From Fistulifera solaris (Eukaryota): 64,000 bases of DNA. The DNA is taken from the NCBI GenBank assembly GCA_030295235.1, contig AP026124.1, positions 620,001-684,000 of the forward strand, in the 5' to 3' direction. The notes under the pieces were generated by a model. That model did no database searches. It was not told the origin of the DNA and worked only from the letters and a program-made list of their open reading frames with translations. Of the stretch, positions 58,709 through 63,453 are shown piece by piece. Position 1 is the first letter of the stretch. Each line of letters starts with the position of its first letter. The position numbers and the translations under genes were made by a program.

Positions 58709-59641
58709 ATGTTTGCTCTTTCTCGCGCATCTGTTCGCAGCGTCTCTCGCTCGGCTCTCCGAAGGTGAGACATCATACTCGCTTGGCATCCGTTTTTCTC
58801 TTTTTTCCCCGTCCACTCATCCTGTCGTTCGTCACTTTTCGCCCTTAAACAGTTTCGCAGCTGTCCAAACGGCTGATAAGCACACGTTGATCTTGGTTCG
58901 TCACGGAGAATCCACATGGAACTTGGAAAACAAATTCACCGGTTGGTATGACTGTCCCTTGAGCGATAAAGGACACGAAGAGGTGAAGGAGGCGGGTCGT
59001 TTGATCAAGGCGGAAGGATTGTCAGCGGATATCGCCTTCACGTCGCTTCTGCAACGTGCCATTCGAACTCTCTGGCATGTGCTAGAGCAAACCGGACTCA
59101 TGTGGATTCCTGTTCACAAAGCGTGGGAGTTGAATGAACGTCATTACGGTGCTTTGCAGGGATTGGATAAGCAGGAGACTGTTAACAAGTACGGCAAAGA
59201 TCAGGTTCTCGTATGGAGACGTAGTTACGATATTCCGCCCCCGACGGTGGATAAAAGCAGTCCTCATCATCCCTCCAACGATCCTCGTTACGCGGGTTTG
59301 ACTTTCCCGAGGAATTCACGGAATCCCTCGCCACAACCCTCGACCGCGTTGTTCCCTTCTGGAATAAGACCGTTGTGCCTGAAATCAAGAGCGGTAAAAC
59401 TGTGATGATTGCTGCTCACGGAAACTCTCTCCGCGCTTTGGTCAAACACTTGGATGGCATCGACGAGGCGACTATTGCTGAGCTCAATATTCCCACTGGT
59501 ACTCCCTTGATCTACGAGCTGGATGATAACTTGAAGCCCATTCCGCAAGTTGGAGCTATTGCTCCTTTGCAAGGGCGTTATTTGGGTGACCAAGATGCTA
59601 TTCGTGCTCGAATTGAGGGTGTCAAAAATCAAACCAAGTAA
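58709..59641 (+). CDS. gpmA: Cofactor-dependent phosphoglycerate mutase with mitochondrial-type presequence
   Basis: [34 protein letters not shown] and IPTG. Exon 1 (58709-58764) encodes [18 protein letters not shown]. Intron 58765-58852. Frameshift ~59307. Confidence 0.95.
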
Positions 59642-60663
59642 AGCGTTTTGTTTCATGATAGGTTCTTTGTTCTAGCTCGTTTTCTTCCTGATTTACAGAT
59701 CAAATTGTTGCTGTTTGTTTATCCTAGAACGCAATAAACTCGTACTCCGTAACATATCCTTATAATTTATGATTGAACTACAGTCGTGGAATCATCGTAA
59801 CCTTACGACCGACACTCTCGAGAGAGCTATAGGTGAATACCGAAGACTATGATCTCATACGCAAGAATTTTCGACGCAAAGAGTCAAGCGTGTATTTCCA
59901 ATGTCTGAAGGTGTTATATGATAGGTAAGACAAACATAGCTTTCGATGCTGGCTGAACAAATAATGGAGTTGGGTAGCATTCTGGCTCGGAAGGAAGCAT
60001 GCTCGTGACTGAAATACAGTCGTGAATGGTAAACATTGAAGACACAACGATTTTCAAGGCTTTTTGACGCAAAGAGTCAAGTGTGTATCTTCCAATGTCA
60101 CTGAAGGTGATAAACAAGTTTAGTTTCCATGCTAGCTGGTTTGATACCAACAAAAGTATCCGGTTTGGCCTTTCGTAAAGCACAATACTTGTTATATGTT
60201 TTGCTCGTAAGGTTCGCGCTATTGTTGGGATTGCTACGCTAAGGTTAAGGTTTAGGTTTGATAGGCGTTTATTGATTATTGAGTCGTCGTCGAAGACCTA
60301 TTTGCGGAAAAGTTCATCGACGAAGATGCACACAGATGACGAGAGAGTTGATACTGTACCCCAGTTGCGAACTCTGACTTGCTAGTTTAGACTTCCTATT
60401 CACACACAATTATCAGTTATTCTTGTGTTGAATCAAACGTTTTAGAGTTGGATTAACTGAGCGGATAAACGCAACATGGCAGCTTGCTCTCGATCGGTGT
60501 ACCCTCCAGCGGTCGTCAAGGCCGTGCAGCGCCAAATGAAGAAACGTCAGATGGGGCCAACATCGATTCCCAAGTCTCTGGAATTGAAAGAATGTATGGA
60601 AAAGACAAATTTGAAAGATGTAGTGGTAAGTTGACACTTGATTAATTGTTGGTAATGTATTGA

Positions 60664-61350
60664 ATGATAATCTCATCGCTCTCCGATCAGTTGATTGAAG
60701 TCAAAACCGATAAGGCAACGAAGCATGTGGACGAAGTAGATGTGCTTCGGGGACAGGAAGTCATTAAACGTCATACGGGGAAGAACGGGGCCTTTTGTTT
60801 CGTCGTTCGGCGACCAGGTAAGAACATAATGTCTATATACTTTCAAGAAAACTCGGCAACTCACAATTATGTTTTCACGGATTGCATAGGATGATTCTAC
60901 TGCCGCGAGCAGGCACTCACACTGTCTGTCCTCGCGGCTATTTATCCGGAAGTCTTCGAGGGGTTTCAGATCTTTGGGATTATCAAGGAGACGGGGGTGG
61001 ATGATGAAGGTTTGGTAGAATTTGTTGACAAATACTTTGATTTCCCTCTTTACTGCGACAAAACATTTTCATTTTACCGAGCTCTGGGTGATCGAAAAAT
61101 TGGAATCAAAGATATTCTCAATCCTCTATCTCTTATCGGGATCTTATGCGATTCGATTAAACGCGTGGTAGAAAAGTCGGTTGATGGGAATTTTTACGGC
61201 GAAGGAATTGTCCAAGGGGGATACATTATTTTCAATAAAGATGGAAAGCCACAATGCATGTACCAGGAACAAACGGGTGTGGATATTCGTGTGACGGAAC
61301 TTGTTGCAGCACTCGATGCTGTTCGCGGTAACACGGCTACAAAGGGATAG
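60664..61350 (+). CDS. Selenoprotein U / PRXL2 (AhpC-TSA_2) family protein with selenocysteine UGA
   Basis: Exon 60664-60817, intron 60818-60889 and exon 60890-61350 read VVRRPG-TGA-FYCREQA, with TGA (60892-60894) at the first Cys of the family RRPGCxxCRE motif. The frame stays open to TAG 61350 and includes GEGIVQGG. Confidence 0.88.
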
Positions 61351-61366
61351 ATGAGCTAAAACAAAA

Positions 61367-61433
61367 GCGGCATGAATGACGGTGAAGTCGGTTATAAGCA
61401 GCCTAGCAATCGGCTTTCTTGAAAAAATGACGC
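61367..61433 (+). promoter_or_regulatory. Eukaryotic SECIS element
   Basis: Helix I GCGGCAT/ATGACGC, core ATGAC(61376)...TGAA(61420), helix II GAAGTCGGTT/AATCGGCTTT and apical unpaired ATAA. Begins 17 nt after the stop codon. Confidence 0.82.
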
Positions 61434-61579
61434 AAAATCATTTCAACTTGACCAGATACTGGGTATAGACACAGCTCCAGAAAATTTTGAGAAAGAATGG
61501 AAAGAATTCTACCCAGACTACTTAATTTTACAGGCTACTCGCACACAAAGCGGTGCCGTTATTTATTTCTTGGAAAGGA

Positions 61580-62852
61580 TTAAACGGTTCGCTGTACTTT
61601 GCGTTTCCAATGATGCTCTTCCTCTTTTTGTTGATTGGCGAGAACTTCGTATTTCATTTGGAATTGGTCTCTAGCGTTCATTGCCCGGGCACGTTCCGCC
61701 AAATGAGGATACTCGTCGTCTAGCTTACACAATAGTTTCCACGCCATGCGCTTTCGTCCCGTTCGAGTCTCAATCCAAACGCGATCAAAGTTGCGAGGAG
61801 AGCAAAAGTTTTGTGTAACGCCCACCGTATCAGTCAAGTTGAGAACAGCACTATCAAAAAAGACCAAAATGAAGCATGAGAATCAACAACACCATATAAT
61901 CAAATGACACAAATCTCGTGTTTGAACACTTACTGCCACCATCCACTGGGAATGAAAACGGTTTCCCCGGAATTCTGTGTAAATTCATAGCAAGCAAAAC
62001 CTCGGTACTCGTCCATGTGCTGACATGCTGCCGCTTTGTGCTTGATTCGATCGAGAATAAAGGTGAAATAATGAACGGCTTCATCATCTTCATTGGACGT
62101 AATCAAGCCTTTTCCTTTCACGATGCGTTTGGGAACATGAGGAGGGAAAAGTACCCACCTCTTTGCCCATGAATTAAAGTATTCCATGCACTGGTTCCCA
62201 AGGGATCGATATGAACGGTTGTTCCCGAACGCTTGGGTCCAACGAGAAACCATCGATACGGCGGGCGTCGGGACTCGGAAACGAACCGAAATAGATCATC
62301 CCGAAAGTACGAAGGGACTTGATAATCGGTTAAAATGCGCTTGGCGTACTTGTCCTCGTCGAAATTGGAATCGAATATATAGAGTGGCGAGTCATCTTTA
62401 TTGTTTCGGAGATACTCCAGAAAATATTTCAATCTGACTTTGACTTTATGGCCATCATCATCCTCCCCGCACTTTAATTTGCGGTTTTGCAACTCTTCAT
62501 CTTTGGTTAATGCTTCCAAATCCCAACTGGCCACCGCAGGCCATGGTTCGGTCCTTTCCGCTGAATCGTAACCTTCCGGAATGCCTTTGATGACGCACGG
62601 AATTTCCTTGGCTTCATAATGTTCGAAGAAATCTTCCTTAGTCAATGTCCGGGCATCGAGAATAGCGGGAATGTCGACCGGGGCATTTTCGTCGGATGGA
62701 ATAAAATGTTCGTATTGTCGGTGTTCATCGGTCAGCGACTCGAGATAGCGGGGAAACTTTTCGGCCATGCCATCCACTTCCCAGTTTCGAAGACTCGGTC
62801 GATGGAGGCGTTTGGCCTCTTCTATTGATTTTTTCCAGTTTTCTGTTGTCAT
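61580..62852 (-). CDS. JMJD6: JmjC-domain protein JMJD6 (lysyl hydroxylase/arginine demethylase)
   Basis: KCGEDDDG, DDSPLYIFD, RPPYRWF..GPKRSGT..HIDPLGTSAWN and PSGWW|HAVLN...TQNF. Intron 61851-61933. Frameshift ~62165. Confidence 0.95.
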
Positions 62853-63453
62853 GAGAGGAGATCTTACTGTACACGTTCGTTGATTAAAAGTTGCTGGCGG
62901 CCCGTCGGCGGATGGTAAGTCGGACAAGGACAAACTGAGCAAAGTAGGGAAAGGAGACTTCCAAAGGTACGGCTCTAGCGAATGAGAAATATCGACACTT
63001 TGTAGTCTCTTTCAAGTGTGATGTCTCAGATGATAAAATACTACAGGGTATGAAATAATGAGGCGAAAGTCCAACAAGGTGATGATGAATGGCAACGATG
63101 AAAATGACTTCGGATTTTCGTTCCTCAATAAATAAACGGCATTCGGCATTCGGCCATCGTCATCGAGGGACGAGGGATAATTTCTCGTCAAGGGATCGGG
63201 CTATTTGCAACAGCCACTCATCAGAAACGTTTTTGACGTCACACTCACATAGCTTATGGCTCTCATCTTGGGCCTTTTTAACGTCGTACCAGGTGCAGAC
63301 GATTGGCCTGAATCTGAAAGGCGTCGGACGAGATTTTTGATTTTTTTTTGTTTTTCGGAAATCTTTTGCGATGAGTTTGCTGCATGCCCCCATCAACTGG
63401 TGTATGGACGCCTTGATTGCATCAATTTGACAAACGAATCGCCTTCATTCAAC

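Follow-up and report, generated by a model that had tools for sequence, protein, structure and literature searches.

Does the in-frame TGA of a thioredoxin-like gene in Fistulifera solaris encode selenocysteine (Sec), and does a hairpin behind the stop codon of this gene represent a SECIS element? The locus in question lies in a 64,000-nt stretch of contig AP026124.1, which was analyzed as a whole and is hereafter referred to as the window. An earlier sequence-only reading of the window had proposed a gene with a two-exon plan that encodes a 204-aa UxxC selenoprotein of the PRXL2/SelU type. Our analysis indicates that the locus very probably contains a genuine selenoprotein gene of the SelU family (SelU/PRXL2, PF13911), consisting of three exons and encoding 245 residues, for which we infer Sec incorporation at the UGA codon. 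The encoded protein is an additional SelU member and is ordinary as a protein. Selenoprotein U is already known from diatoms, and the gene alone therefore only corrects an annotation. More weight is carried by a survey of the hairpins that follow such genes, in which the apical adenines, commonly regarded as nearly fixed in eukaryotic SECIS elements, are mostly missing at that site from the diatom-type elements.

Gene structure and transcripts

The spliced reading frame of 738 nt starts at ATG 60476, encodes 245 residues and is distributed over three exons (Table 1). The UGA is codon 94 and is followed by a Cys at codon 97. Exact removal of both introns was observed in contigs of the transcript runs X2 and X3, and the intron 2 joint is represented by one contig in each run. 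Joining of the exons at intron 2 generates CGA CCA G/GA TGA TTC TAC TGC (the slash marks the joint), which corresponds to RRPG-TGA-FYC-REQA. The splice product that had been read from the sequence is therefore confirmed, as are the 151 open codons beyond the UGA, which extend to the TAG stop codon. The start codon and the exon count that had been proposed require revision. The ATG at 60664, from which the 204-aa product was derived, is located in the spliced-out intron 1, and the 50-codon first exon had been overlooked. Accordingly, the UGA does lie 2 nt into its exon, but this exon is the third one and not the second.

Table 1. Coordinates of the gene, its 3′ hairpin and related loci (window positions unless a locus is named)
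Feature	Position	Strand	Description
Exon 1, coding part	60476..60625	+	50 codons (MAAC..DVV) with an N-terminal Cys4; from spliced contigs and homologous N-termini
Intron 1	60626..60690	+	65 nt, GT..AG, phase 0; skip of 65 in runs X2 and X3
Exon 2	60691..60817	+	ends in the RRP-G motif
Intron 2	60818..60889	+	72 nt, GT..AG; splits the Gly codon preceding Sec (phase 1); spliced out as 72 nt in X2 and X3
Exon 3, coding part	60890..61350	+	AhpC-TSA_2 (PF13911) domain; TAG stop at 61348-61350
In-frame TGA (predicted Sec94)	60892..60894	+	U94-F-Y-C97; Cys97 codon at 60901-60903
SECIS-like hairpin	61367..61433	+	helix I, GA-AUGAC / UGAA core, 12-pair helix II, one bulge, 14-nt apex
Hairpin parts	helix I 61367-73/61427-33; A-UGAC 61376-80; helix II 61381-93/61408-19; AA 61396-97; UGAA 61420-23	+	
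Other UGA genes, each followed by a 3′ hairpin that has the same core	L047/L048, L056/L057, L066/L067, L076/L078, L005-L007		GPx, SelT-like (Rdx), MsrA, TrxR (GCUG end), SelU paralogs
eEFSec	L096:793-2583, C12	-	two Pfam eEFSec_4th stretches; partial twin on C11 (L097, L098)

The transcript contigs originate from four runs of a single study whose material is only guessed to be RNA; the X1 contigs are unspliced, and the X4 contigs do not cover the joints. The spliced contigs start near 60385, and the contigs end at 61448-61457 with the hairpin included. The TGA is covered by a spliced X3 contig (record 16) and by an unspliced X1 contig (record 3) without any other letter. An X2 contig (record 9) has a single deviating letter at an unlocated site within 60888-61100; no deviation is tabulated at the TGA itself. 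The transcript check that the sequence-only reading had suggested for the TGA and the junction thus came out positive for both in the contigs of this one study.

The host genome of 51.7 Mb contains two copies of nearly every locus searched. The second copy of the gene (L002) exhibits an identical exon plan and the same TGA, with a 66-nt intron 1 at the same place and a 70-nt intron 2. An intron-like break at the place of intron 2 is also found in L022. In exon 1, the two copies differ by seven synonymous codons and one non-synonymous codon. For codons 94-244, the counts are 25 synonymous and 1 non-synonymous, which indicates that purifying selection is strong downstream of the TGA. Homologs of exon 1 are present in proteins and loci from elsewhere, and no hydrophobic leader was seen in the exon 1 product. 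In many of the homologous N-termini, a Cys is among the first four residues (MAAC, MAC, MSC, MATC and MSAC; 60476-60487 in the window), and this early Cys could possibly be a lipidation or metal site.

On its 5′ side, the gene is preceded by a phosphoglycerate-mutase-like gene (PF00300; 58671-59641, + strand) whose coding sequence falls into two overlapping frames near 59300; the split would represent an assembly indel or a broken allele. Two similar stretches of ~90 nt (59840-59960 and 60050-60140) are also located upstream of the gene and, by eye, have a GACGCAAAGAGTCAAG core. On the 3′ side, a frame-broken convergent gene (61580-63011, - strand) has no Pfam match at E<=0.001 and presumably resembles a JmjC/JMJD6 protein. 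At 61850, loose contig ends in X2 and X4 continue with sequence from ~61935, which suggests an intron in the convergent gene.

Conservation of the UGA codon

TGA is found directly after RRPG at 26 of 28 homologous metagenome loci; one of the other two has TGT, and one lacks coverage of the site. Four of the 26 TGA loci are near-identical, and two more constitute a pair. The expectation that homologs would have Cys or Sec at this column is thus confirmed by alignment. Open codons continue for 144-194 positions after the TGA in 21 metagenome TGA loci, with the exception of L035, in which an intron-like break occurs six codons after the TGA. In 219 homologous protein records, the Sec column is occupied by Cys (73 records), Trp (16 records) or Ala (1 record), and the other 129 records are without the motif, many of them starting downstream of it. 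The same genome also contains a Cys-type SelU paralog pair (L004/L008, RRPGCVLC) that is not followed by a significant hairpin and of which L008 is frame-broken.

Protein family and proposed chemistry

The encoded protein matches PF13911 (AhpC-TSA_2) with 52.2 bits, compared with a cut-off of 27. A profile search of the PDB retrieved only human prostamide/prostaglandin F synthase (PGFS; E 8e-13), in which the RRFGCVVC sequence aligns with the motif. A structure predicted for the intron-retaining reading, with exon 1 omitted, has a pLDDT value of 72.9, and a Foldseek search with this structure yielded PGFS as the top match, followed by peroxiredoxins. The NCBIfam SelL-related model gave 15-18 bits on two homologs, compared with its cut-off of 120, and 0 on the SelU protein. 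In the available parts of the sources, prostamide/prostaglandin F synthase is identified as SelU3/PRXL2B (PMC3473315; bioRxiv 10.1101/2025.05.29.656587), two SelU are listed for Thalassiosira pseudonana (PMC2375036), and more than half of 36 algal genomes are reported to have Sec-SELENOU (PMC7539508).

In the proposed mechanism, SBP2 would bind the hairpin ~480 nt downstream of the UGA at its kink-turn core (AUGA/GA), eEFSec would bring Sec-tRNA, and UGA94 would be decoded as selenocysteine. The Sec94 residue, located before the thioredoxin-fold helix, would function as the attacking residue, form a selenenylsulfide with Cys97 and be re-reduced via the thioredoxin or glutathione system. A catalytic cycle of this kind is general to thioredoxin-fold UxxC proteins. 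Most likely, and with moderate confidence, we infer a cytosolic reductase acting on peroxides, lipid (endo)peroxides or protein disulfides.

Architecture of the 3′ hairpin

The hairpin with an AUGA/GA core and two helices that had been noticed behind the stop codon is indeed present. Its core contains the A-UGAN / KGAW quartet in the form of A-UGAC / UGAA. Helix I consists of 6 pairs, helix II has a single bulge and 12 pairs (14 in the twin), and the upper stem has an energy of -9.2 kcal/mol. None of 100 dinucleotide-shuffled versions of the 260-nt UTR attained the core-plus-helix score of the hairpin, and 3 of 246 window tiles did; scores of at least 20 and at least 15 were obtained by 3 and 17 tiles, respectively. 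Plain folding energy was not above that of the shuffles (z values of -0.55, 0.40 and 0.38). The Rfam SECIS_1 model (RF00031) gave no match at the locus or genome-wide, where 121 of 987 candidates were scored. Clear Sec genes of the genome (GPx and TrxR) are also without an Rfam match, and the result therefore reflects insensitivity of the Rfam model here rather than the absence of SECIS elements. Comparison with SECIS models, which the sequence-only reading had named as decisive for the hairpin, thus gave a significant result in our own core-plus-helix scan and none with Rfam.

The apical adenines are displaced from the standard register. An AA is located 16 nt after AUGA in both copies and thus deviates from the SECISearch pattern NTGA-10-13-AA-15-39-GA, which, in the available text of its descriptions, places an unpaired AA (or CC) 10-13 nt after NTGA (PMC2375036, PMC1802603). 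The adenines that had been cited in favor of a SECIS element do exist at 61396-61397, but they are off-register and unconserved among homologs and are therefore not the supporting signal that was assumed. Between the two copies, three stem substitutions are observed, all of which are one-sided and keep the pairs, and no two-sided compensatory change was found.

Survey of hairpins downstream of UGA genes

To cover elements without apical adenines, a simple scan of our own was used, which searches the 260 nt after the stop codon for an RTGA..GA core with an adjoining helix and does not require AA. A hairpin was regarded as significant when it outscored 95 or more of 100 shuffles. The homolog survey comprises 25 loci, consisting of 24 TGA loci (5 from this genome and 19 metagenomic) and 1 Cys locus; L020 and L021 (no UTR), L035-L038 and L041 (stop not located, introns) and L042 were omitted. 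The metagenome loci are likely to be from diatoms. A significant hairpin was identified in 20 of the 24 TGA loci, and none was found within 260 nt at the other four (L006, L019, L026 and L034). At the Cys locus, the hairpin is not significant, with a score reached by 91 of 100 shuffles.

The significant hairpins share their core. AUGA opens all 20 of them, and GA precedes it in 18, although the scan did not request it. An AA at 10-13 nt is present in only 2 of the 20, and 14 have none anywhere 8-18 nt after AUGA. Within this genome, significant hairpins follow the coding region in 11 of 13 UGA-gene UTRs versus 1 of 23 non-Sec controls; the 13 UTRs belong to SelU, GPx, SelT-like, MsrA and TrxR genes and are mostly twin pairs, corresponding to ~7 independent genes. 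An AA at 10-13 nt is restricted in this set to the MsrA pair (13 nt) and L006. The GPx and SelU-paralog hairpins have U-rich loops in which AA is missing in both twins or in one, and the best-scoring hairpin of L076 adopts a pairing different from that of its twin. The SelU paralogs of L005-L007 are a tandem pair and intronless. Two hairpins of the same core occur in one 3′ UTR at L033 (778-839 and 982-1043) and at L016 (2269-2340 and 2436-2504). Overall, the hairpin probably functions like a SECIS and probably falls into a relaxed class, with a fixed GA-AUGAY..YGAN core and with freedom in helix length and apical adenines.

The outcome depends on the search pattern. A first scanner, in which the MFE stem had to close at the core and AA was required, missed the gene's own element. 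A second scanner with a forced AA produced good matches at few loci, and the shared core emerged once the AA demand was dropped. A loose pattern search of the genome returned ~24,900 matches and was uninformative. Our own RNA model (R2) recovers its training elements and their twins and, at E<=1, none of the SelT and MsrA elements, and it thus provides no independent test. Covariation counts were reached by 0 of 500 shuffles for four of five measures; these counts are circular, since pairing was the criterion by which the elements had been chosen. In the available parts of earlier work, apical adenines are described as typical but not invariant (PMC3753652, PMC13059024, PMC11227280), and in a mammalian assay, expression was lost when they were mutated (PMC1802603).

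Sec machinery and tandem domain 4 of eEFSec

The genome encodes a tRNA-Sec with the anticodon UCA, SepSecS, SBP2 and eEFSec. The SBP2 protein matches human SBP2 with an E value of 1e-20. Six tRNA-Sec genes score above the Rfam cut-off, including tandem pairs on C27 and C29. In both copies (L087/L088 with L011; C3 and C4), tRNA-Sec is located directly 3′ of a ribosomal protein L7a-like gene. The long L7Ae frames beside tRNA-Sec were considered as SBP2 and rejected by sequence; we take them to be ribosomal protein L7a.

The eEFSec protein contains two domain-4 units, which are mutually homologous with a probability of 96%, and human eEFSec aligns with the first unit only. Among named proteins, its nearest match is from F. 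solaris, with 95% over the region searched. Both units are found in 120 of the 120 closest eEFSec homologs listed, a set biased by the query. Among named proteins, which include no stramenopile besides diatoms, two domain-4 units are present in 7 of 7 diatom eEFSec proteins, and the tandem arrangement occurs in 0 of 18 proteins from green algae, haptophytes and animals with their relatives, 17 of which have one unit and 1 of which has none detected. The non-diatom count comes from a second search under a limit of 608 residues, which excludes most tandem forms by design; of the 109 new proteins in that search, 4 have two units. Searches of the ESM Atlas with the second domain 4 gave no match, and those with the complete protein led to generic eEFSec clusters only. 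A cluster look-up put a name to a single homolog, from the diatom Grammatophora. In mammals, domain 4 contacts the SECIS apical loop, as described in the available text of PMC12254956. A literature search, from which subscription papers were mostly excluded, retrieved no description of diatom SECIS elements without AA or of a tandem domain 4. AA-less SECIS elements and the tandem domain 4 co-occur in one lineage, and we hypothesize that they are linked.

Discussion

Several explanations of the UGA without Sec can be weighed. The TGA could be a true stop codon of a dead gene or of a 93-aa product, a sequencing error, or a site removed by alternative splicing, and such a view might draw on the frame breaks in other genes of the assembly and on an in-frame AG at 60952 that would bypass the TGA. 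It is extremely improbable, given that the same TGA recurs in the second copy, in the contigs and at nearly all of the homologous metagenome loci and that purifying selection downstream is strong. The contigs use only the acceptor at 60889, which answers the concern voiced in the sequence-only reading that splicing could exclude the TGA, and the 60952 acceptor would delete the active site. Alternatively, a variant code or a leaky stop could cause the UGA to be read as Cys or Trp without selenium, as the 16 Trp records might imply. The one Trp record that was matched to DNA (P0025 = L021) has TGA at this column and is therefore a gene-caller artefact, and TGA terminates ordinary genes in this genome (L059, L060, L077 and L079). 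Together with the Sec machinery genes and the specificity of the hairpins to UGA genes, these observations render a selenium-free reading very improbable. The proposal of a UxxC selenoprotein with a PRXL2/SelU thioredoxin-like fold is thus sustained by the TGA/Cys columns, purifying selection, the conserved hairpin and the Sec machinery.

The class of the hairpin is less settled. It could be a canonical type I SECIS with a long helix, in which case the loss of AA in homologs would reflect wrong or partial picks by the scanner or would fall within the looser models of SECISearch3. In both copies, the gene's own element retains its AA on the 5′ flank of a 10-nt loop, the AA of the MsrA pair is at a canonical distance, and helix 2 lies within the published range of 11-16 bp (PMC2647825, available text); taken by itself, the gene's element is thus compatible with a long type I SECIS. 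The accessible portions of two reports also indicate that SECISearch3 grades rather than filters on apical nucleotides (PMC3753652) and that the T. pseudonana selenoproteins were discovered through a SECIS search (PMC2375036). Still, a canonical type I assignment appears unlikely in light of the upstream GA that is common to most of the chosen hairpins, the U-rich loops of the GPx and SelU-paralog hairpins, and the majority of hairpins that are devoid of a nearby AA.

We therefore prefer the relaxed class, from which a broader and tentative picture can be drawn. The diatom Sec-insertion interface may have been remodelled such that the extended core is kept, the helix II length and apical adenines are released, and domain 4 of eEFSec is in tandem; the two changes would be linked, and pattern searches would undercount selenoproteins. 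As a whole, this picture is possible rather than probable. With AA-poor SECIS elements and a duplicated eEFSec domain 4, diatoms, which are genetically tractable, provide a natural setting in which to study the roles of the apical loop and domain 4 in UGA recoding, and the survey improves the pattern by which hidden diatom selenoproteins can be searched for.

Comparison with known systems

The protein shares with SELENOU/SelU (PRXL2A, B and C, corresponding to SelU1, 3 and 2) the PF13911 domain, the RRxG-[U/C]xxC motif, Sec/Cys pairs, a 3′ SECIS and occurrence in diatoms, but differs in its N-terminus, which is extended by 50 aa that are conserved and include an early Cys, and in a SECIS that is off the standard spacing. 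Human PRXL2B (PDB 9us9, 9usa) is the best PDB match (profile E 8e-13, fold E 4.6e-6), and its CxxC aligns with the UxxC; the identity in the structural alignment is ~18%, and Cys is found there in place of the Sec here. The hairpin resembles eukaryotic SECIS type I (Rfam RF00031) in its AUGA/GA core with an unpaired A, helices I and II, location in the 3′ UTR and upper-stem stability. In contrast to type I, the AA is located at 16 nt here and is absent or misplaced in most homologs, the GA before AUGA is conserved, and an Rfam match is absent. Human eEFSec (PDB 5izk, 7zjw; domain 4, PF21131) aligns with the diatom protein over domains 1-4 (E 3e-79), but the latter carries an additional, C-terminal domain-4-like unit.
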